NCBI GenBank assembly: GCA_951406725.2
Contig: OX597815.1
Location: 201,190,001 to 201,254,000, forward strand
Direction: 5' to 3'
DNA: 64,000 nucleotides
DNA from: Octopus vulgaris
Taxonomy: Eukaryota
Shown: piece by piece, positions 1 through 57,214 of the stretch
How positions within the stretch are numbered: position 1 is the first letter of the stretch
Layout: each line of letters starts with the position of its first letter
Made by a program: the position numbers and the translations under genes
The notes under the pieces: generated by a model
The model's input: only the letters and a program-made list of their open reading frames with translations
Told to the model about the DNA's origin: nothing
The model's database searches: none

Positions 1-189
1 TATAATGCTATCTTAATCAGAAGTGACTACATTTAATGAAACCTATTACTACCATCGTAAGCATTTCATTTTGGAATTACTATTATGTTACTGTGCTAAA
101 TAAAAATTTTAGTAAACACCTATATATTAATATAATTCTTTCGACTGTTATCGTTCATATATTGTTTCTACTATATGTACAATGCCTGG

Positions 190-3960: not shown

Positions 3961-5046
3961 TATGTATAAGCATATATATTGATAAATTATACACACACAC
4001 ACATATACATATATGTATATATATATGTATATACATACACATGCATGTATATTCATACATATACGTGAACACACACATATAGACATGCACACACACTCAC
4101 ACATATCTATCATTATTTCTCGGTTTCTTCTTGATTTTTTTTTCTTGATAGAAGATAAGGATTGTGTTTATCTGAGTGATCTATAATGTAACATGGAAAC
4201 TTAATATTTTGTTTTTAAGAGTTATTGCTTTCTCAATATTGAATACGGTTATACGAGACATGACATTTGGTTTTGACATAACATTATTGGTTATATTTGC
4301 CTGTTGCTACACATTCTGCAGAAGAATGTTCCATTATTTGTAAACTTCTAATGTCATATTCATAGATGTATAATCTTACAACATCAACACTATGTTTCTC
4401 TGGAAATTGATTGCACTCTTTAGAAATGTTACCGTTTCGTTTATCTATAATTATTAAACGGTTCTTTGTAGTATCTTCTCCTCTATTTTGTATAAATTCG
4501 CGTAATTCGTCCCGCATAAACATATCTGTAAATATAAGGAATCATTGAAAATTGGGTATATTTGTGGTCATTCACAATGTATCTAATATCTATCATACAT
4601 CTAAGAAATCAAACCAAAATTTAAACTGTGAGAAACAAGAGGGTTTCACGTATGATAGAAAATATCTGTTGGTTATTAATATTTAAGTTATAATTAAGAT
4701 TAATCTAAATTGATATCTGCACCAGCAAGATCAATTTCTGTACTTGTAACAGGAATATTTTGTAATAGCAATTTCCAAATATAAAACAAAATTTTCATTC
4801 GTATTAATCTCAGTGTAGTATTTAATATCTATTTTCAGAGACTTTATTGCTGATTCGGTACCCAATTATACACCTCTCTAGACAAGCAAGCATCAATAAA
4901 GTATTATTGGATAGATCTATACATCATGTTGCTGTAAATATCTTAATCATTATATATTTTCAGGAAAAGATATCCTAACCACAAAAGTGGTGCCAGGTCA
5001 GAATTTGGCCAATCTAATACAAATACTTCAAAATCATTCAACATAT

Positions 5047-5417
5047 AGGCGTAGGAGTGGCTGAGTGGTAAGGCGCTTGCTTACCAACCACATGGTTCCG
5101 GGTTCAGTCCCACTGCATGGACCTTTCGGCGAGTGAATAGATTTGGTAGTCGGAAACTGAAAGAAGCCCGTCGTATATGTGTATATATATATGTATGTAT
5201 GTGTGTATATGTTTGTGTGTCTGAATTTGCAACCCCCCACAAAATCGCATGACAACTGATGCTGCTGTGCTTACGTCCCCGTAACTTAGCGGTTCGGCAA
5301 AAGAGACCGATAGAATAAGTACTAGGCTTACAAAGAATAAGTCCTGGGGGTCGATTTTCTCGACTAAAGGCGGTGCTCCAGCATGGCCACGTCAAATGAC
5401 TGAAACAAGTAAAAGAG
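5047..5417 (+). mobile_element. tRNA-derived SINE family A
   Basis: A box tggctgagtggt, B box ggttcagtccc, internal (TA/TG)n, tail gactgaaacaagtaaaagag. Multiple copies in the window. Confidence 0.9.
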
Positions 5418-19195: not shown

Positions 19196-19912
19196 CATGC
19201 GTTTGTGTGTGTGTGGGGGGGGGGGGTGCGCCCGCGCGTGTATGTATGGAGGTATATTCTCTGAATACCATTTGCTGGTAACCGGAAAACATTTATTTAG
19301 GTCAAGTGAATAAATGTTTAACTTCAACATTCCATTCATAGTGACGGTTCCCGTTACCGCTTTAATACATTTATTTGCAGTCAAATAGGCTGCTGGATTT
19401 CGAGTAAAAAAGAAACGTCGTTTCATTGTAAATTCAGTAGCAAACGATGTAGCTGAATCAATTCTTGTCTCACTTCAAAGAAAGCAAATCCACCGGCTTG
19501 ATGTGAACGAACATCCAATAAAATTTCAAAACCAGAAACTTGAGAAAGAGATCAATTCAAATTCTAAAGTCAAACATATTTTATCATGACAACAAAGTAT
19601 AAGTATATATCGGATCAATGATGGACTGGCAAAGTCTAATCATAATAATACTGTGCGTGCAGGAACATATCAAAAGAAGGCGAAGCATGACAGCTGATTT
19701 ATTTGAATCTGCGGAAGAAAATTTCACTGTAATTGAAAAGTACTTTACGTTAGTTATATAAAATTTTTTTAAAAATTCTAAAAGTTTTGTACATTAGCGT
19801 TCAAATGTACCATTGATTGTAGTGTGTAACAATGCCCAACGCCAACATATATTGAGTATTTCCACCTCACTTTTAGTACCTATAGAGGTGGTTCATAAAT
19901 TTAACAAAATAA

Positions 19913-20305
19913 TAGGCGCAGGAGTGGCTGTGTGGTAAGTAGCTTGTTTACCAACCACATGGTTCCGGGTTCAGTCCCACTGCGCGGCACCCTGGGCAAG
20001 TGTCTTCTACTATAGCCTCGGGCCGACCAAAGCCTTGTGAGTGGATTTGGTAGACGGAAACTGAAAGAAGCCCGTCGTATATATATGTATATGTATGTGT
20101 GTGTTTTTGTGTTAGTGTTTGTCCCCATAGCATTGCTTGACAACTGATGCTGGTGTGTTTATGTCCCCGTCACTTAGTGGTTCGGCAAAAGAGACCGATA
20201 GAATACGTACTGGGCTTACAAAGAATAAGTCCCGGGGTCGAGTTGTTCGATTAAAGGTGGTGCTCCAGCATGGCCGCAGTCAAATGACTGAAACAAGTAA
20301 AAGAG
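19913..20305 (+). mobile_element. SINE family A, full length (CORE-like cctgggcaagt)
   Basis: High identity to the 5047 and 53302 copies. Confidence 0.9.
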
Positions 20306-20913
20306 AAAGAGAAATGATGATGATAACCAGTGATAGGAATAGGTCGTTTTTTAGTTAGAATAATAAGATAAAGAGGTCAAAGTATTCATCCTTTTCTGGG
20401 ACTTTAAGAATGCAGTTGTTGATGTGATAGATGTTATCTATATAGCGATGTGAAAAGCATAAACTCTTACAAAAGAGCAGTGAATAATTACTAAAAACTA
20501 CACCCGAATGTTTTTTTTCATAGACTATTTTTTTCATCCCACTGAACATAGGCATTGTTTTGGTAATACCGATTACCAAAATTCAGATTATTAATCTTAT
20601 TCGCTACTCACATCCAAAGATCATGTCTATCACAGCTTCGCTCACTTTGTATAAAATCATAGGAGTTCCGACTGAGAAATACCTGACCGCTTCTGAAGTA
20701 TCTGAATGCCTACCGGGCATCTTGTTGCTTGCCGATGCTTTCATAAAGAAAGGTTTCTACGTTCTACATTTCAAATTTGAACCCATATTCTAAATTCCAT
20801 GGGATTTAAACAAGGTGATGATCTTTATAATACCTTATTTTAGTTTACATTTCAGTTATTTCATTACAGATATGCTGTCGTCAAAATCATACAAATACAT
20901 ATCGGTGTGATCC

Positions 20914-26413: not shown

Positions 26414-26560
<147 letters not shown>

Positions 26561-26580
26561 TATTATTATTATATATAATA

Positions 26581-26744
26581 ATAATAATAAATATTAGGGA
26601 ATAAATCCAAATTTACAGGAAAAAAAATCAGATTTAGGATTAAATCCAATTTTATAGTGGCGGTTTTTTGACTTTTTATTAAAATTTTATGTATTGATTA
26701 AGTCTTTCCTTGTTTGTTTTGCAAAATAGTGGTTTTGTCTCTAA

Positions 26745-26752
<8 letters not shown>
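26581..26752 (-). mobile_element. Rearranged (5'-inverted) pLTR fragment of the 34500 family
   Basis: 26581-26658 matches 34501-34576 directly. 26655-26752 matches the reverse complement of 34590-34686. Confidence 0.85.
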
Positions 26753-26789
<37 letters not shown>

Positions 26790-33015: not shown

Positions 33016-33019
<4 letters not shown>

Positions 33020-33286
33020 TAGAGATAAAACCACTATTAGGCAACTCAAACAGGGAAGATCATAAACAATACATAGAAAAAAATTAATTAATATTAATAT
33101 TAATACTAATATTAATTAATTTATTTAGTAATTAATTAATTTTTTTCTATGTATTGGTTTATGATTTTCACTGTTTGAGTTGCCTAATAGTGGTTTTATC
33201 TCTAATTTAATATAATATATATTTATACTATAAAATTAGATTTAATCCTAAATCTAATTTTCCCCTGTAAGTTTGGATTTACTCCC

Positions 33287-33290
<4 letters not shown>
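33016..33290 (+). mobile_element. Related pLTR fragment with inverted duplication
   Basis: Inverted arms 33016-33090 / 33129-33208. The tail resembles the reverse complement of 34501-34576. Confidence 0.7.
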
Positions 33291-33325
<35 letters not shown>

Positions 33326-34448: not shown

Positions 34449-34499
<51 letters not shown>

Positions 34500-34504
<5 letters not shown>

Positions 34505-37500
34505 ATAAATATTAGGGAATAAATCCAAATTTACAGGGAAAAAAATCAGATTTAGGATTAAATCCAATTTTATAGTAAAATATTATAAAATATTATTAGA
34601 GACAGAACCACTATTTTGCAAAACAAACAAGGAAAGACTTAATCAATACATAAAATTGTAATAAATAGTCAAAAAAGGCGCCACTACAATCGTTTCTTGT
34701 CTTGATCGACAATCTTCAGGTGGACTTCCAATCTAAAATAACAATATTTTAAAATATAAAAATAATAATTTTAAAATAATTAAAGTATGAATGAAAAAAT
34801 ATAAATATATAATCCATATATAACCTATATATAATCCATATATAATCAATATATAAACAATATATAAACTAAAATAAACCAATCAACAATTAAATATAAA
34901 ATATAAAATATAAAATATAAAACAAAACAAAAAAAAATAATAATAATATAATAATAAACTATATATACACCCATACACATATACCTAATTATATATAACC
35001 ATATCTAACTACATACACTAAATCACACACCTATATATATATCCCTATACATACACATAAAAACGTCTAGGCAACTATAAATAAATAAAATAGCTAAATA
35101 CGTCAACACAATACTTATTCATACTCCCACACACACACACATACAACCCACATTCACGCTCTAGAAAACGGACATCACTCAAAATTATGAACGGAGAAAT
35201 GGAATAAATGGAATTAAAAATTATATTCACTTGGTAAAACGAACACTACTTAAAAATTATGAATGAAACAATGCAATAAAACAACAGACATCGCAAATAG
35301 ACACAAATTACTACGAATTCCTTAACAAACCCACCATGATAAACCAAAACTCATAAAAACATATAATGATAAAATCTCCCTTTACTAAACTCTATAACAT
35401 ACCTATATAGCAATCCCCCTAACCTAAACATTCACACACAAATACACACACGTAAACCACACACCCACGACATATACAAATACCCACACCACTTACACAT
35501 ACCAATACATACATATAAACCTCAATATATACTCCAAAAACCCACTCAACCCCACACAGACAAAAAAACACAAAAATTATGAATGGATTCTTTTATAAAA
35601 CTACCATGATAATCGAAAACTCACAAAACAGAAATGATAAAACCTCCCTTTACTAAACACTATAACATACTTATATAGCAATCCCTTTAACCTATACATT
35701 CACACACAAATACACACACATAAACCACACACCCATAACAAATACAAACACCCACCCCACTCACACACACCCACAAGTACATATAAGCCTCAACATATAC
35801 ACCCAACAAAATTACTTTACCAAGGAACTTAACATATGTATAAAAAGTATAACCGCTCTGGAAACGAACATCTCTAAATTAATGAATGGAGAAATGGAAT
35901 AAATGGAATTAAAAATAATATTCACATGGCAAAACGAACACCACTCAAAATTTATGAATGAAACAATGTAATAAAACAACCAACATCGAAAATAGACAAA
36001 TTACCACGAATTTCCTAAAAAAACCATGATAAACCAAAACTCTTAAAAACATATAACGATAAAATCTCCCTTTGCTAAACTCTATAACAAACCTATATAG
36101 CAATCCCCCTAACCTAAACATTCACACACAAATACACACACATAAACCTCAGACCCACGACTTATACACATACCTATACTAACTTATAAACCTCAATATA
36201 CACCAAAACCCACTCCCTCCCCACACAGACAAATTAACACATACATCCCAAAACCTAAATAACAAACCCATATACACATTCACACACAAACACACACACA
36301 CGCAAAACACACACACACAACAGATACATATACCCCCTCACATATACGCATATACATACTCACTAAACTCGATATATACAACAATATTTACACACCCACA
36401 CTCATACAGATAAATAAATTATACAACTAAAAACTCACACACAATCTCATATACATAAACACTCCTATGAAAACAACATTAAATACATCGTAATTAACCA
36501 GAATATCAAAAATAACAATATGACATAAGGATAAATAAAATACATACTTACAAGTCAGTTTCAAATTATGAAGTGAAATTAAATTCTTAGCCGTTAAAAA
36601 AATCAAACCAAAATTACGTTACCATAGAAATAACTTATGTTAAAAAAAGAATACGCGCCATGGAAAGTAAACGTCATTTAAATTATGAATGGAGAAATAG
36701 AATAAATGGAACTAAAAACTATATCCACGTGGCAAACCAACACTACTTAAAAAAATTATTATGAATGGATTCTTTAAAAAACTACCATGCAAAATCATTA
36801 TATACATTTATGAGCTTTAGCTCACCTTAGCAGCTCTAACAAACAACTTGCAGTAACCCAAACCTATTCTCGATGCCTACCTCACTACTACACTATTCCA
36901 TTCACAATTCCAAGCAACGCTAGTCCACCACCCGGTTACAATTCCCAACTCCACCCATTCATTCACAAATTCAACGACGTTCGCCTCCACAGCGCTACAT
37001 ATAAGCCTCAACATATACACCGGAGATTCACTTTCACATCCGTGCGGATGGGTGAGAGTATACATTGAGTGTAGTGATGGGGCTCCCATTACTATACACA
37101 TTTATACCTGTGTAGTAGTCTCCATGTGTATATTCACGCACGGGTATAAATGCAGGGGGTACACGCGCACGTCATTTGCGTGTACCCCCTCACATGTACA
37201 TATGCATGCTATTTGGGCTCGATATATGCAACAATGTAATAGCGCCCGCATACATGCATATGGGTGAGTTGCACAATCAAAAAACGCACACGTGTGTGTG
37301 TGCGTTCCCTGGTTGTGCAATTCACCCATCTGGGTGTGAGTGGGTGTAAGCGTATCGCTGTGGATGTCGAGCTTGACACGTATGTATATGAGTGTGTATT
37401 GGGGGGTTGTACGTATTTATTGTGTGCATGTGCTTCACGCACGTGCGTCCATGTATGGATGAATATATTGGGATTGCTATGTGGGTGTAAATTGGGTATG

Positions 37501-38160
37501 GAGGGGGAGTTTTGTCATTGTATGGGTGTGGGTTTCATTTGTGATGGTGGTTAGTTGGTGATTTTTGGTATGTTCTGTATATTTGGGTTAGTTATGTATT
37601 ATTCTAGTGTGTATAATTGTATACATATGATTGGTGTGAGTGGGATTACGCCCATTTTTGGGGATGTATGTGTTTATTTATCCGTGTGGAGCGGGAGTGG
37701 CCGTTAGGTGTATATGTTGAGGCTCACATGCAATTCCAGGTACAGCGAATGAAGTGGGCACTTATATTTGTTACGGGTGTGTGTACTTTATTATAACAGA
37801 CAATACCCAAATAAAATCTGTCAATTCAACATACCAAATAAAAAACAAAAAACAAAGGGATCATAAACATTCACACATACATACAAAACTCAATAAAAAC
37901 ACCACTAAATAACACCCATCAACATATAAATATATCCTCCAAAATACATATAACAAATGCATAATAAAAATACATAATAAAATAAAATAAAAATAAAAAA
38001 ATAAAAAAATAAAAAAAATATATAAATAAAGAAAATAAAAAAATCTAATATAAATTATTAAAGTTTTAACATACCATAAACTGTTAAATTAATATACATT
38101 AAAAATGAACTAATTAAAACAAAGAAATATCAATAAAGACTAACTATAATTAAAATATTA
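34500..38160 (-). mobile_element. 3.6-kb non-coding element ending in a hammerhead-bearing pLTR
   Basis: Bounded by (TA)n. A/C-skewed on +. Internal diverged repeats at ~35155, 35575, 35855 and 36655. Inverted G/T-rich block ~37050-37790. The terminus is shared with 26581-26752 and related to 33016-33290. Confidence 0.6.
34681..34723 (-). ncRNA. Type I hammerhead ribozyme (minimal)
   Basis: Minus strand: ccac-CTGAAGA-ttgtc gatcaa gacaa-GAAA-cgattg-TA-gtgg. All three stems pair and stem III is near-palindromic. Confidence 0.88.
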
Positions 38161-43772: not shown

Positions 43773-44153
43773 TGGTGGAGGCGCAATGGCCCAGTGGTTA
43801 GGGCAGCGGACTCGCGGTCGTAGGTTTCGATTCCCAGACCGGGCGTAGTGATTGTTTATTGAGCGAAAACACCTAAAAGCTCCACGAGTCTCTGACAGGA
43901 ATGGTGGTGATCCCTGCTGTACTCTTTCACTCACCACAACTTTCTCTCACTCTTACTTCCTGTTTCTGTTGTACCTGTATTTCAAAGGGCCGGCCTTGTC
44001 ACTCTCTGTGTCACTCTGAATATCCCCGAGAAATACGTTACGGGTGCATGTGTCTGTTGAGTGCTCAGCCACATACACGTTAATTTCACGAGCAGGCTGT
44101 TCCGTTGATCGGATCAACCGGAACCCACGTCGTCGGAACCGACGGAGTGCTTC
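43773..44153 (+). mobile_element. tRNA-derived SINE family B with 11-bp TSD
   Basis: A box tggcccagtggt, B box gtttcgattccc. TSD cagactccata at 43762-43772 and 44154-44164. Confidence 0.92.
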
Positions 44154-46614
44154 CAGACTCCATACGTCTACCTCTCTACAACCTTGATCATAATCTTGGT
44201 CCCACAGAAGTTTTTCTTAAATAATCTAGCTAGTTCACTCTTAGCTATATCATCTGCAAAAAAGAGCACTATCAAGCTTGGGGTATTCATAACACATATT
44301 ACATTTAGCCCTGTTACAAAACAAAAATCTGTTGGGTTTTTTGTTTGCTTTTGATTTACTCTCACCGACGGACACATATAATCCACTTGCATTAGCAAAA
44401 TGGAACTAGTCCAAAATATATACTCACAGTTCACACACCATACAAAAAAAGTCGCCACCGAATATACCTTCTATTCATAACATGTATTTCTTAATCCTTT
44501 ACTGAGTGACCCTGGCCCAAAATTGAATCGGTGACCAATTTGAACTGTTAGTCTTTCAAATTCTTGTAAAATGTGTATATGCCTGTGCGTGCCTCAATAA
44601 ATTTAACTGTATTTAAAAGAGTTCACTTATGGGGATATATGTAGTACTTATCAGGCTTCACTATTTTCATCCCAATAACATTCTTTTTTTTATATAATGC
44701 TGTATAAAGATTAATATAGTTATCTAATTTGAGTTGCATCAAAAGCACACACCTATAGAATATTTGCACTGAGTCTATTGACTGAGCTAATGTGTTTACC
44801 TATAACATGATTAAAAAATGTGTCTTTCCAAATACAGTTGCTATAATATCAACTGAAAATAGTTCGGATTCATCATTTATTTCGCTCCTATATAAAGAAT
44901 TTTCTTCCTGATACTTCTGTGCACCTTGTACTTTGTAGTGTAGCTTTTGCGTTGCAGTGGTAATGCGGTTTTTGGTACTTATACTATTATTTATTATCCA
45001 GATGAAGCACGATAAATGGTAGTATTTACAGGTTTCGTTCTGATGGATCTTAACGGTTTTATTTTTTATTTTATTTTAGGAGATACATATTCAGATTATG
45101 TTTTCAAAATATACTCAGTTAAATATTTCATCACGTCGGTTAGCAAGTACATTCTGCATTGAAACTTATCGCTATCTTCCTACATATTAGCCTCACCTAT
45201 TTTGCTATTCAAGTTAGCTACACAGATGTAAAAGTTAATTTCGATATTTACGTAGTATTGCTTTTGGAACAAATTGTTACAATTGTTTCAAACACTTATA
45301 CATCTTGACCATTATTTTCGTCCCTTACATCGAACATTTTCTGCAGAATAGTAACTACTGTATATTATATCAATTTATATGACAACGTCTTATATATATA
45401 ACACATATATCCGTATATTTATCAAGTCTGCAATTTCGATGTTCAGTTTCGCAATTTCCGACATGCCAAATCCTTTCCTGATTACCTGCATGCTGGCCAT
45501 AAATTTACTCTAATATGAATGGCGTATGGACAGTTTCGATGTTCCTTTAATTACGAAGCTGTATGTCTATTGGTCAAAGTTCAGTTGAATTAATCTGCTG
45601 GGATTTTCAGTTAGGTAAAGAAGGATGCGAACGAAATTTGCTTTGCCTTTTACAGTACAAGAATCTTGATAATTATGGTACTCTCTGTTAGTGAAATGAA
45701 TCGCTTGAATTGCCATTAGAATAGTTACAAACTTTGATAAATCTTTTATTGTTCAACTTCCGCATTATATATCATTGTGAAATACCATGTTCATTCCATT
45801 CATTTTTACAATAGATTTATTTTACAATCTACTCTTTAATAAATTAAGGCTGTCAAATTCTGCAAATTAAAATGTAAATACAAATTTATTTCAATTAATA
45901 AACGAATGAAAAACCGACTGTAATTTCGGAATGCATTTGATAAGTGAAAAGTCAATGAACGTGTAGCTTGAAATTAGTTCTAAATATCTCATGCTAAGAA
46001 GGTATTCCTTGAAGATGAGAAAAAGCGCCGACGACCTGTGCTTCACAAACCATTTGTGGGTTATTAAATAAGTGAAGCGAAAACTGATTAGTAATGTCGC
46101 AGACGCAGCGAGCATTGAAATGTTTTACATCTGTTCCGCAGCAGACATTCCAAAAGTTTATTGCCACTTGTTAGGAAGGAAAAGAAAACTCCGTTCATAA
46201 TTCTCTCCTTTCTTTTATTTAAGAATATGTAAGAATATTAATTTCTTGATCTGACTCTGACATATGAATTAATCTATTCGTCAATCGACGGTGCTTCCAT
46301 AATTGCAGCAGCGAAACGAAATACCAAAACATGTTCAAAAACCGAAACTGAAGCGCCAACTGTGTATCAATATATTAATGCTTTTAACAGATTTAATCAG
46401 CGACTAATATGCTAACACACTGACGATCCCATCACAGCAGAAAGCAATGGTGAAGTAACCGACGAATTGTACAAAAGTCTGTGACGTTTGCTTTTCCAAC
46501 CTGCGTCAATATAAAATGAACAAATTATTCATCTTGACAACGTTAGTACACGCTTCTCTCACGTGCTTCTGCAGAAAAGAGAGAGATAGAGTGTGTGTGT
46601 GCGTGAGTGAGAGA

Positions 46615-48139: not shown

Positions 48140-50960
48140 ATTTATATATTCTTTTATTTTTTTAATTATTCCTGTCGTAGGATTGCAGCCATAATCTGCC
48201 TTCCTTCAATTTTGTTGTCTCTTAATCGCTGGGAGTTGGAATATAACTGGGCTGAACTACTTTCAATGGTTTTCTGGTCCAGTATCATTATTGGAAGTTT
48301 TTCCAAAGCTTGTGTTTTAATTCTCCAGCACTGATCCCTTTTATATTTCGGATTTCCTTAGGTAGGCAGTGGAACAATTGAGGACATCTAGATATCAGAT
48401 TCGTACAACAGTATGATTTTGCTGGTGATATCTGAGGGGGCATATATGGAAGGTGATAGTATTTACCCGTACGTGCATTAAAATACTCTCTAATTGTTGA
48501 AGTTTGGATCACGTCACTCTCCGATTTACCATACGTATATAATAGAATATGTCTCTCTTCGGTATTCCATGCAGCAGAGACGCAGTGCTTTCCGACGTTC
48601 TCAGTAATTAAGGCTTTTAACCGAAGTTATTTTACTCGTGGACATTCATTATAACACTTCACTTTCTTCTGTGAGTCCGGATATGTTTGGAATTCAAAGT
48701 TGTGAGCTGTAATCTGATCTGTTCTGAAGTAAGGGTGTCTATAGAGTCAGTATAAACATCGGTTCTCTTGTCACGAAGATTCATATGAACCATCCCATGA
48801 GACGTACGTGTTTAAAGGTCAGTTTTGTGATATGACTGAAGAAAAATGCTTAATGGTTGCTTCAAAGTTTCCTATGCCATTAGCACTCTGAATCATTCTA
48901 TTATCTTGTGTCAGATATTGTGACTTGTGTGTGTTTCCTCCGTAATGAACAACCTGAAACTTTGGTGCATTACGTTTCGTATTCTTTTTATCTGCCCATT
49001 GATTAATGAGGTTTACCGCATCTTGAGTGTGATGGCAACTTCTGCAGTTTGGACATCTATGGAAATTTTTCATTCATTGGCGTGTGTCGCTAGGTTGAAA
49101 GATTACACCTGTGATCTTGTAATTGATAGGGAGATAATAGAGAATCATGTTCCAAGAACCTTGCACCGACATATACCAATTATTACGGGTGAATTTGCTG
49201 AAAAAAAACCCACCTGCAGCAACATTGATTATTTCTCCGAAAGAAGTGAAGGAGGCATTCTACGAGTTTTCTAGGAATGCAAAGATCTCTTGACCTATGA
49301 CAGATGATTCCTTGAACAATCTTGTAAAACGCTTTAGCAAAATCAATGTGACTGCAGTCGATGTCCTCTCCTCTAGAGAGATTGTTGAAAATAGCGTTAT
49401 GGTGCCGTAACAAAAGAGTTAGGCAACATCGTCCACTCCGAAAACCATGCTGTGTATCAACTAAGTTGTTTTCTTCAAGGTGCGTAATTAGTCTCTCTCG
49501 GTCAATGAGTTCGACAATTTTAAAGGTGTGGAATTTGAAAGAAGTGGGGTTATAGTTTTAGCTTCAGCCCTGTTACCTGCTTTGTGTATAGGTTTTACAC
49601 TTGCGATTTTCAACAGTTTTAGAATTATACCAGTATCCAGCGACTTTTGAAATAGCATATTTAATGCTCTCATGAGTATGTTTCAGTACATTTTTTACAG
49701 AATGACTGAGATCCAGATGATGAGTTTCAATCTACTTCGTTAATAGCTCTATGTACATTATCATCTGTAGTTTCATAACTTTCTAGACGTGTCTCTGCAG
49801 TTGATATCCGGGGATCAAAAGATTCCTTTCTACTATATTATTAATTATAGTTTCCAAGAAAGTATTGTTATATTATTGATTCAAGAGGATGCATGTTTGT
49901 GATGATCCATTTTGGTTCATTAGGTGTACATATTATTTTTTTTACCAAGTGGAAAAAGAACTGAGGAATAGATTTTGATATTCTCCACTGTTTTGTGTCC
50001 CTTTAGCGAATATTTTGTAAAATATATTTTTTACGTACAATGTTCTTCCTTTTTTATTCTATTTTACTTCGCTATCCCACGTTAAGAGAGTTAGTTTTGT
50101 TTTTATTTGGTACTGCTACGCTGTTGTATCCGTCTCATAGAATATTTTTCTTGCGGGAACAGGCGTGTTTATATGTTGTATGCTTTCGACAGATTTTGAT
50201 TATATCTTCGCAGAGGAATTTTATTTCTTCCTTAATACTGAGGTTGCCAATATACTGAGAGCAGTTTCTATTTAAGATTTCAGTTTCTGTTTCCTACTTC
50301 TTGACCCTCCTGAAAGTGAAGTTCATGAGCCAGGTTTGAGGTTATTTGTGTGTGATGATCACTTTGAATCATATTCAAATATTTGTATAATGCTGCAATC
50401 ACAAAGATCTGTCAGAATGACATGTATTTTGTAAAGGATGTCTGTATTTGTGGTAATGAATAGGTTGAGTATTTTATTCCTCTGGATGGAAACACTCCGT
50501 CGGTTACGACGACGAGGGTTCCGGTTGATCCGAATCAACGGAATAGCCTGTTCGTGAAATTAACGTGTAAGTGGCTGAGCACTCCACAGACACGTGTACC
50601 CTTAACGTAGTTCTCGGGGATATTCAGCGTGACACAGAGAGTGACAAGGCCGGCCCTTTGAAATACAGGTACAACAGAAACAGGAAGTAAGAGTGAGAGA
50701 AAGTTGTGGTGAAAGAGTACAGTAGGGATCACCACCATCCCCTGCCGGAGCCTCGTGGAGCTTTTAGGTGTTTTCGCTCAATAAACACACACAACGCCCG
50801 GTCTGGGAATCGAAACCGCGATCCTATGACCGCGAGTCCGCTGCCCTAACCACTGGGCCATTGCTCCTCCACTTTATTCCTCTATCTGGAGGCGTATCAG
50901 CAAGACAGCTTTCACTTATCTTTCAGAAAGACCTTTCTGAAAGTGAGTACCAGAAGACTG
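48140..50960 (-). mobile_element. Old CR1/L2-like LINE (APE end to RT), heavily frameshifted, interrupted by a SINE
   Basis: KILNLFIT (APE), LFQKSLDTGII..KIASVKPIHKAG, IDFAKAFYKI, CPQLFHCLPKEIRNI. Confidence 0.85.
50484..50872 (-). mobile_element. SINE family B inserted in the LINE, 11-bp TSD
   Basis: Reverse complement of the 43773 copy. TSD tttattcctct at 50473-50483 and 50873-50883. Confidence 0.92.
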
Positions 50961-53136: not shown

Positions 53137-53301
53137 GACGTCCCACTAGCTATCAGTTTCCCATCCGCATATGGAAGATGCCAAAATAAACCAAGAAGCA
53201 CAAAGAAAACTTGTTACAATCTAGGGGTCGAAAATATGGTTCTATTGACGACGCGAAAGCTTATGTTTAACTTGCGAACACATCCCTAATCTAAAATCAC
53301 A

Positions 53302-53693
53302 TAGGCGCAGGAGTGGCTGTGTGGTAAGTAGCTTGCTTACCAACCACATGGTTCCGGTTTCAGTCCCACTGCGTGACATCTTGGGTAAGTGTCTTCTGCT
53401 ATAGCTTCGGGCCGACCAATGCCTTGTGCGTGGATTTGGTAGACGGAAACTGAAAGAAGCCTGTCGTATATATGTATATATATATATGTATGTTTGTGTG
53501 TCTGTGTTTGTCCCCCCAGCATTGCTTGACAATCGATGCTGGTGTGTTTATGTCCCCGTCACCTAGCGGTTCGACAAAGAGACCGATAGAATAAGTACTG
53601 GGCTTACAAAGAATAAGTCCCGGGGTCGATTTGCTCGACTAAAGGCGGTGCTCCAGCATTGCCGCAGTCAAATGACTGAAAGAAGTAAAAGAG
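53302..53693 (+). mobile_element. SINE family A, full length
   Basis: High identity to the 19913 copy. Confidence 0.9.
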
Positions 53694-54781
53694 AAAAAAG
53701 AAAAATGCCCTAATAGCCGTCAACACTGTAGGGAACTGGAGAGAACTTCCATCAAATTCCCATTTGGTTTCATAGACAAAAGAAGAACCTGAATCTACCA
53801 TAGAGTCCACAGAGGAAATAGCGTTGAAATGATCCACAACATATGCTCAAGGATCCTTAAAACATACTTGTTCAGGGTAAATGATGCTACCATTCCTCTC
53901 GGATTTAACCTTTTTGGCTTCCACTTTTCAATTTCTTCAATTGTTTGTTCCAGCTGATTTGATATTTGATGAGTTGATGTAGTTAAGCATGGTAATAATT
54001 GATATGAAAGTCAATTTCACCATAAATCAATAAATAAAGCGCTAATAGCATTTAGCGTTTTCTAATTTTGGGTAATTTTATTCAATCGAAAGACAGATAT
54101 ATATGCATCTGCTTCCATAGTAACAAACCAAGCTGATACAAAACTGCTTAACCACGTGGTCATTTTTTCTTCTTAAATGTTTAAAACACATGAGGTATGA
54201 AGTAGTCGTGAGATGTGCTAAAAATAATAGGCCTTAAATCACGCACCAATTTCTTTCTTTTTTTTTGGTACGGAAATTTCGTATGAATTTCCGTGTGTAC
54301 AATAAAAATACGAAAATAAAGGGGATTATAGGGTGTGCATAAAGCAGAATTCCGCTAATATTTCGCTTTTTTATAGTTGGCAACACGAGCAGCAACGCAC
54401 AAAATGAAAGCTTTATAATCCTGTTTTACTCAATGGGTAAAGATTATCAATTTTTAAACTTCACCAATGTTTTTATTGTTCTGGAAAAAGTGAATTAGCT
54501 CCTAAGTTTCTGCGTGGATACTTACATCATTAAACCTAACTTTAAAATTTTCACTAAACTTTAAAATTCACGCAGATACAGTTAAATAGCAAAGATACTC
54601 CTCTATTCTACACTTATCGCTCTAGCCATAAATACTATAAACAATGCTAGACTCCCTGAAGAAATTGCTTTATGAGAACTGAAGGAAACCAGTGTTCAAT
54701 AACACACTTACATGCGCAGACAATCGTTAGGACATACGAATATATGTGTATGAATGTGTGTGTGTGTGTTTTGTGTGTGTG

Positions 54782-56325: not shown

Positions 56326-56585
56326 CGGAAACTGAAAGAAGCCTGTCGTATATATGTATATATATATGTATGTGTGTGTATGTGTTTGTGTGTCTGTGTT
56401 TGTCTCCCTAGCATTGCTTGACAACCGATGCTGGTGTGTTTACGTCCCCGTCACTTAGCGGTTCGGCAAAAGAGACTGATAGAATAAGTACTGGGCTTAC
56501 AAAGAATAAGTCCCGGGGTCGATTTGCTCGACTAAATGTGGTGCTCCAGCATTGCCGCAGTCAAATGACTGAAACAGGTAAAAGT
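56326..56585 (+). mobile_element. SINE family A, 5'-truncated
   Basis: Matches the 3' two-thirds of the 53302 copy. Confidence 0.9.
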
Positions 56586-57214
56586 AAAAGTAAGTAAGTA
56601 TACAAACATACGCATAGGTCACGTTCATGTATGTTTCTTTCTATAACTGTGCAGTTATATTTCTGGAGTGGTTTTGGCAATTTAAGGTTTCTGAACGTCT
56701 ATAAAAATACATTCATATGCAAATGTATTCGGAGGAGCAATATCAGTAATACTATGAGACGATTTCATGAAAGCATAAGCTATACATAAACTAGCCCATT
56801 TAAGTATCAACAGGTTATCATTGATAATATAAATTTTCGTTTCGCAAAAGAAACAAATTCAAAATATATCTAGATGAATAAAATCTAATTAAAATTAAGA
56901 AACTGACAGATTCAATCACAGGATATAAGAGAATTACTCAAAAAGAATGTAGGGCAGCCAAACTAATACAAGATTGAAATTTAATGAAGAGGAAACAAGA
57001 AGAAAAACACAACTCTGTTGAAGTACATTAAATCGCAAGTTTTAGAATTTTATGATAAAACAACAAATTAAACTTGTCTATTGTTAGTGTCGAGACATCT
57101 ACTGGACATCAATTATTTAAAAGTACTTTTATGGCAATATATATAAAAAACTGTTACTTTATCTATGTTTATGTATGTACGTGTATGTGTATGTAAGCAT
57201 GTATGTATACATGC

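Follow-up and report, generated by a model that had tools for sequence, protein, structure and literature searches.

The window analysed here is a 64,000-nt stretch of the Octopus vulgaris genome (contig OX597815.1). At 26581-26752 it carries a 172-base insertion, which lies inside a (TA)n tract and is composed of two pieces of a putative Hydra-clade Penelope-like element (PLE) arranged head-to-head; no target-site duplication of this insertion is resolvable in the (TA)n flanks. Positions 26581-26658 align with 34499-34576 in the same orientation (77 of 78 bases identical) and positions 26652-26762 align in inverted orientation with 34580-34689 (92%), with about 7 nt missing between the two arms. 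These alignments bear out the first-pass annotation in its description of two TA-flanked pLTR pieces of the 34500 type in opposite orientation. The family match implied there stands, but not the 34500 copy as the source: the identity of the inverted arm is 93.8% with that copy but reaches 99% with copies found elsewhere. On these grounds an origin from the 34500 copy was rejected, and the fragment is, judged from its sequence, an independent insertion and not part of that copy.

Element positions are numbered such that +1 immediately follows the predicted hammerhead cut on its 3' side (window position 34684, minus strand). The term arm denotes a single stretch of element DNA within one insertion, and the cut window comprises element positions +2 to -2. 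The coordinates are summarized in Table 1; the older relative listed there is about 80% identical and does not include the ribozyme. Other dispersed repeat families of the window are located at 5042-5417, 19912-20308, 53298-53696 and 56326-56590, and a 390-nt inverted pair, 6.3 kb apart, is formed by 43775-44155 with 50487-50872.

Table 1. Coordinates of the fragment, its flanks and the related element copies in the window
Feature	Position	Strand	Remarks
(TA)n target, left flank	26420..26556	.	
Long arm of the fragment	26581..26658	-	element 3' end including the 'tail', +109 to about +185
Junction microhomology, 4 nt (TAGT/ACTA)	26655..26658	.	-2 to +2 in one arm, +109 to +112 in the long arm
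Short inverted arm of the fragment	26657..26752	+	+1 to about +100; ends at the internal priming site near +105
(TA)n target, right flank	26750..26786	.	
Older diverged relative	33017..33310	.	same head-to-head layout, joined via an AT stutter 3' of the ribozyme
5'-truncated, intron-retaining family copy	34500..38154	-	starts in the 3' UTR, no ORF; compared with L169
Minimal type I hammerhead (predicted)	34681..34723	-	predicted cut 34685/34684; 2-bp helix III, self-complementary loop
Spliceosomal-type intron (GT..AG)	34733..36551	-	1,819 nt here, 1,816 nt in L169; second donor 4 nt downstream
Exon 1, 23 nt	36552..36574	-	first base 36574 = -71 in spliced numbering, in an Inr-like TCACT

A 31-nt anchor of the family has 2,987 exact matches in the genome, and the copy L169 represents a full-length tandem unit of 5,996 nt with an 838-aa ORF. 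A single ORF (RT and GIY-YIG) in tandem units with a pLTR is the organization of an endonuclease-bearing PLE, and the YRDD and VYKC..VYIG motifs are conserved across 23 aligned homologues. Pfam gave no RT or GIY-YIG match for the L169 protein, and below the cut-off it gave RVT_1 in one and GIY-YIG in two of the 23 homologues; searches of solved structures and of phages with the ORF returned nothing informative for the protein itself. Further PLE traits are the inverted 5'-truncated copy with an optional tail and the head-to-head pairs with outer ends near +105 and +190, both of which are fixed (short arms end at +99 to +107, long arms at +186 to +190).

The ORF contains the Hydra-clade motifs RIKWK (RmRWK in the homologue consensus), SDKT, CTCRDKSNC, CYLC and CRH, no CCHH motif was seen in it by eye, and the family inserts into (TA)n and carries a canonical hammerhead; by these motifs, the targeting and the hammerhead, the element is a candidate member of the Hydra clade. 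The unit is longer than the <3 kb usual in that clade because of its 1.8-kb intron and long 3' UTR, and this length is a tendency and not diagnostic, according to the available part of Craig et al. 2021 (PMC8557442). Set against the elements described in that part, the octopus element is alike in the RWK-type motif, DKT, CxCX5C linker, CxxC, CxH and C-terminal GIY-YIG, as well as in the canonical hammerhead, (TA)n targeting, inverted 5' copy and tail. It differs in unit size (6.0 kb, not <3 kb), in the 1.8-kb intron before the ribozyme, in an Asn-rich ORF insert, in an 85-nt instead of a 30-40-nt tail, and in that many copies are spliced. The Asn-rich insert (L169:3200-3520, ORF residues about 500-600) lies between RT and endonuclease and is absent from the aligned homologues; similar ORF inserts are described for rotifer Penelope elements in the available part of PMC3846280. 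The element type, inverted end, tail, pre-ribozyme intron and minimal hammerhead are already known from the accessible portions of PMC8557442, PMC4209133 and PMC3846280.

The ribozyme reads CCAC-CUGAAGA-helix II-GAAA-C-GAUU-G-UA/GUGG (slash, predicted cut), and its layout and cut site are as they had been described from the letters. It comprises the CUGANGA, GAAA and UH core together with helices I-III of a type I hammerhead, and is predicted to cleave itself at the UH site. In the window, Rfam returned nothing at gathering score; the monomer folds at minimum energy into a structure different from the predicted ribozyme fold, and the helix III region is able to pair as a dimer. The same layout, with a variable loop II, occurs in 227 copies among the collected loci, as found with a pattern that itself requires the core. 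The helix I pairs are intact in 220-223 of these 227 copies, the figure being 220-224 when pairs 2-5 of helix II are included, and the helix II base shows one double-sided change, a U-A/A-U swap between subfamilies. In one subfamily variant (4 of the 227 copies; L202, L208 and related) GUU replaces the GUA cleavage triplet. The metazoan PLE hammerheads covered in the available text of Cervera and de la Pena 2014 (PMC4209133) are likewise of type I, with a short helix III and a self-complementary loop, but have a highly conserved G10.1-C11.1 pair, where the octopus helix II base is U-A, A-U or U-U.

The intron ends 48 nt ahead of the cut, comparable to Drosophila virilis Penelope, whose intron 3' end lies just ahead of helix I (PMC4209133, available text). 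In the unspliced copies of each subfamily a GT donor follows exon 1, and in the spliced copies the joint between exon 1 and exon 2 is precise; the first 100 of 320 matches comprised 7 spliced copies, and the others run into a donor (one apparently mutated). Subfamily A possesses, besides the shared donor, a second one 4 nt upstream of it, which most of the observed spliced copies of this subfamily use. At least four subfamilies comprise both spliced and intron-retaining copies, each subfamily being spliced at its own donor (window 34733-36551; L038, L045, L140), and the spliced copies seen are all short, extending from the transcript start to the pLTR end. Spliced and intron-retaining sense RNAs both act as templates. 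In L133, L052 and L157, exon 1 or exon 2 is seemingly joined to internal intron segments, possibly by alternative splicing within the 1.8-kb intron.

Spliced arms cluster at -53 to -71. Among the first 100 of 107 spliced arms that reach -68, inspected by eye, 40 reach -71; 34 of these stop exactly there, two stop within 2 nt, and four extend well beyond. Position -71 (36574) is likely the transcription start, and an Inr-like motif has been noted also in rotifer pLTRs (PMC3846280, available part). The wall at -71 illustrates how a true RNA end appears in this PLE family and serves as a positive control for such an end. An extra G directly before -71, which neither arm explains, was observed in three copies (G000:C15:10565403, C28:16544837, C9:71167814) and is possibly a copied cap G.

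For a census of arm ends, the first 100 of the 2,987 anchor matches, all on contig 1, were aligned. The sample contains 40 spliced and 26 unspliced arms, and 77 of the 100 arms read across the cut. Three ends fell at +28 to +46 (one being an internal deletion on inspection), 19 of 97 at +8 to +27 (0.98% per nt, CI 0.59-1.53), none of the 100 arms ended at +3 to +7, one ended at +2 to -2, with a local duplication, and 7 of 77 at -3 to -45 (0.21% per nt). In R2, genomic 5' junctions correlate with where the HDV-like ribozyme cleaves (Eickbush et al. 2013, PMC3774820, available part), and the first-pass annotation had applied the same logic of a cut site that sets 5' junctions. With the majority of arms crossing and about 2% ending no more than 2 nt from the cut, the octopus 5' junctions are not ribozyme-defined in the R2 manner; in contrast to R2, the main 5' wall is the likely transcript start and not the cut.

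A larger hot zone of breakpoints lies 3' of the cut, where the end rate at +8 to +27 compares with 0.16% per nt at +28 to +46. AT-richness alone was rejected as the cause of this zone, since across 200 nt of the equally AT-rich intron end (90%) the 26 unspliced arms have only about 2-3 ends. With a second pattern, 697 arms were retrieved in which the element is interrupted or changed between +25 and -34, and most of the first 100 of these lie in the same zone when inspected by eye. Many junctions in the zone bear short stutter repeats of the U-rich tract; inversion junctions with 10-60 nt of reiterated short repeats from this tract were seen in L096, L099, L104, L110, L118, L120 and L145. Such repeats resemble the products of realignment as carried out by telomerase, to which the RT is related. 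The zone may be caused by stalling at the foot of the ribozyme, folded or bound by protein, or by trimming of cDNA copied from cleaved RNA.

If trimming were the rule, the zone, with about a fifth of the arms, would derive largely from cleaved RNA, the GC-rich cDNA ends being trimmed back to AT-rich microhomology. The end rate in comparison with that of the intron end points in this direction, as do six insertions in which both arms end in the zone (L033, L043, L049, L051, L145, L164). The partners of arms ending in the zone mostly stop 3' of the cut, too (8 insertions versus 1 by script, up to 4 by eye), which fits a larger cleaved class and counts against a family copied mainly from uncleaved RNA. 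However, the transcript start stops 34 of 40 arms exactly and few arms stop at +1, L105 shows stutter and then read-through into an intact ribozyme, and about a dozen arms that end at -3 to -14 have partners in the zone, so that the zone forms also on uncut RNA. We regard such common cleavage as doubtful. The broader view that the PLE hammerhead cuts in the germline often enough for at least a tenth of insertions to derive from the 3' product, visible as a minor peak at the cut and a large accumulation of ends with stutter 8-27 nt downstream, both arms being limited by one cut RNA, likewise does not seem likely.

It had been proposed that a spike of breakpoints at the GUA site across all family copies would support cleavage, and this was examined genome-wide. 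The patterns required the sequence just 3' of the ribozyme and forbade intact core bases, and matched 82 times in subfamily A, 87 in B/C and 67 in D. Plainly intact or indel rows were mostly excluded by eye and scripts removed 34 more as intact, which left 161 arms; another eight were dropped (the fragment itself, four same-orientation deletions, duplications or indel copies, two segmental duplicates and one ambiguous arm), which left 153. Two pairs of insertions with shared flanks, L173/L174 and L317/L318, lie 150 kb and 12 kb apart and are segmental duplicates or assembly haplotypes.

In subfamily A, 20 ends fell in the cut window and 40 in 20 positions upstream (ratio 2.5, p=0.001); the counts were 22 and 52 in 12 positions for B/C (ratio 1.27, p=0.21) and 3 and 10 in 16 positions for D (ratio 1.2). 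The pooled rate ratio of the 153 arms is 1.65 (CI 1.16-2.35; quasi-Poisson p=0.04). Hence there is an excess at the predicted site but no strong spike, and it is significant in subfamily A only. The upstream position -7 alone has 18 ends, more than any position of the cut window (9-15). Relative to the 1,283 subfamily A arms that reach +7, the cut window holds 1.6% raw and about 2.3% with an assumed filter pass rate of 0.6 (non-TA partners), of which about 1-1.5% is excess.

This excess might arise from microhomology and position alone, i.e. from the tail of the stall zone and from the word ACT/ACTA, which also occurs at +15, at +109, at the transcript start and in (TA)n, such that the ribozyme never shapes insertions. 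The ratios in B/C and D are consistent with this explanation, as is a model with a linear distance trend, in which the pooled ratio is 1.64 (0.97-2.76) and the interval includes 1; furthermore, no RNA-seq reads ending at the cut were reported for the anole element in the available part of PMC11167929. Against it, with AT-end covariates the excess remains (ratio 1.80), and ends at +6 to +3 are rare (2 versus 19 at +2 to -2, among the first 100 of 140 rows, by eye), so that the cut-window excess is a small local peak and not a wall or a smooth tail, although cDNAs ending in G/C may be disfavoured at +6 to +3. An explanation in which the ribozyme has no part is unlikely in our estimation. Probably a minority of templates, corresponding to at least about 1% of arms, was cleaved; the restriction of significance to subfamily A and the interval of the trend model count against this class.

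The two arms of an insertion are likely copied from a single RNA: in all 22 resolvable pairs the splice status agrees (14 spliced/spliced, 8 unspliced/unspliced, none mixed), where about 10 mixed pairs would be expected, and 10 further pairs were unscorable by script. A further concordance test (11 of 13) counted the two arms of an insertion separately and presupposed a base rate of 0.3, so that its p-value is given no weight. With a single RNA for both arms, no partner arm could cross the cut if the template had been cleaved, and the ends were therefore stratified by partner, each insertion being counted once and four partner calls being corrected by hand. With the partner 3' of the cut, 20 ends lie in the cut window versus 23 over 12 positions (-3 to -14; ratio 2.6, p=0.002), by subfamily 10:6 in A, 10:15 in B/C and 0:2 in D (cut window:upstream). 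With a partner that crosses the cut, the counts are 8 versus 33 (ratio 0.73), and with no partner found 16 versus 24 (ratio 2.0, p=0.03); the strata differ (Fisher p=0.011). This stratified excess fits a minor class of cleaved templates; preferential joining of nearby ends could yield the same pattern without cleavage, as the microhomology explanation would have it.

Individual junctions include copies that resemble run-off at the cut, namely L171 (both arms at the cut, TA filler), L098 (restart after +1) and L273 (foreign filler between arms ending at -1 and about +5). In 9 of 10 cases an end at +1 is followed by A, which is only suggestive, the DNA being AT-rich. Microhomology of 4 nt was found at 11 of 99 inversion junctions, 50 of the 99 being scored as insertion or unresolved, and cut-site junctions with ACT/ACTA microhomology (3-4 nt) occur also where the partner crossed the ribozyme (L305, L325, L360).

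With respect to the fragment itself, the TAGT microhomology noted earlier is confirmed, and owing to it the junction can be placed to five bonds at best. This interval includes the cut bond, as claimed, but the claim that the junction falls exactly on the cut goes beyond it: half of TAGT, the bases TA, sits 5' of the cut and would be lacking in the cleaved 3' product. The fragment may nevertheless have been copied from that product, its cDNA having run off at +1 and paired by 2 nt, with the extra TA present by chance. The cut bond within the junction interval, the partner arm 3' of the cut (which puts the fragment in the stratum where the excess resides), the membership in subfamily A with its 2.5-fold excess, and the run-off-like copies with their A-rich next base are in favour of this origin; how common 4-nt microhomology is among inversion junctions, the chance of about 1 in 6 (an estimate) for the TA if the RNA was cleaved, and the ACT junctions whose partners crossed the ribozyme weigh against it. 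A rough estimate puts the odds that the template of the fragment was cleaved RNA somewhat below even. As a fossil of cleavage in vivo, as which the junction had been interpreted, it is not established from this single copy; what holds of that interpretation is a likely minor cleaved class in the family as a whole.

The geometry of a twin-primed inversion, also proposed at first, is supported, as the long arm halts at +109/+113, just before the second priming site near +105. An inverted pair could in principle form by fold-back, in which a single cDNA snaps back and copies itself; self-priming was proposed for inverted pLTRs in the available part of PMC3846280, many family junctions are palindromic, and the concordance of splicing would follow trivially. 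In the fragment as well as in L121, L255, L266 and L361, however, the arms have almost no sequence in common and it is the short arm that extends further 5'; we consider fold-back very improbable. For the fragment it is excluded by the arm geometry, a long arm that stops short of the second priming site being impossible by fold-back of one cDNA.

Our preferred reading, with a probability of about 0.7, is that the fragment is a short head-to-head PLE insertion in a family copied mainly from uncleaved templates, and that its cut-site microhomology could have formed whether or not the RNA had been cut. Copying of one RNA would be primed from both ends of a (TA)n break, the main template presumably being uncleaved RNA that is either spliced and starts at -71 or retains the intron. 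Copying would often stall and stutter at the U-rich tract, the 3' foot of the ribozyme. In the fragment, the long-arm cDNA would have stopped at the second primer and then been joined to the short-arm cDNA.

L1 twin priming, as given in the available part of PMC2837659, is alike in the two inverted pieces of one RNA, the small internal deletion and the junction microhomology seen in the fragment; the octopus family differs in a second priming site fixed near +105 and in that the arms of most copies overlap over the ribozyme. In vitro, a dead ribozyme leaves the insertion efficiency of the anole Poseidon element PAc unchanged, and reverse transcription begins at two internal sites (Frangieh et al. 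2024, PMC11167929, available part). The octopus family shares with PAc the two internal RT starts, the extension of both target strands, the AT-rich target and the dominance of uncleaved RNA; our evidence is genomic and in vivo, and shows a small excess of cut-site ends, against none in the RNA-seq data there. The octopus census agrees, in vivo, with uncleaved RNA as the main substrate in vitro. The available portion of bioRxiv 10.64898/2026.07.22.740005 has no bearing on junctions, and no breakpoint census for PLE hammerheads was found in the literature accessible without subscription.

The role of PLE hammerheads in vivo is stated as unclear (PMC8557442), and intron retention and the formation of inverted ends in PLEs are named as open questions (PMC3846280), in the available parts of these papers. 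With its thousands of young copies, the octopus PLE family constitutes a natural experiment. The family shows that the ribozyme is mostly read through and that a true RNA start appears as a sharp wall, that spliced and unspliced sense RNAs are both templates with both arms likely from one RNA, and a hint of a minor cleaved class. If frequent cutting were true, insertion junctions would be a genome-scale in vivo readout of PLE hammerhead activity, beside direct evidence for twin priming on spliced and intron-retaining sense RNAs. The single junction at 26581-26752 carries little weight; the useful result is the family-wide pattern, which makes hammerhead activity in PLE mobilisation directly testable.
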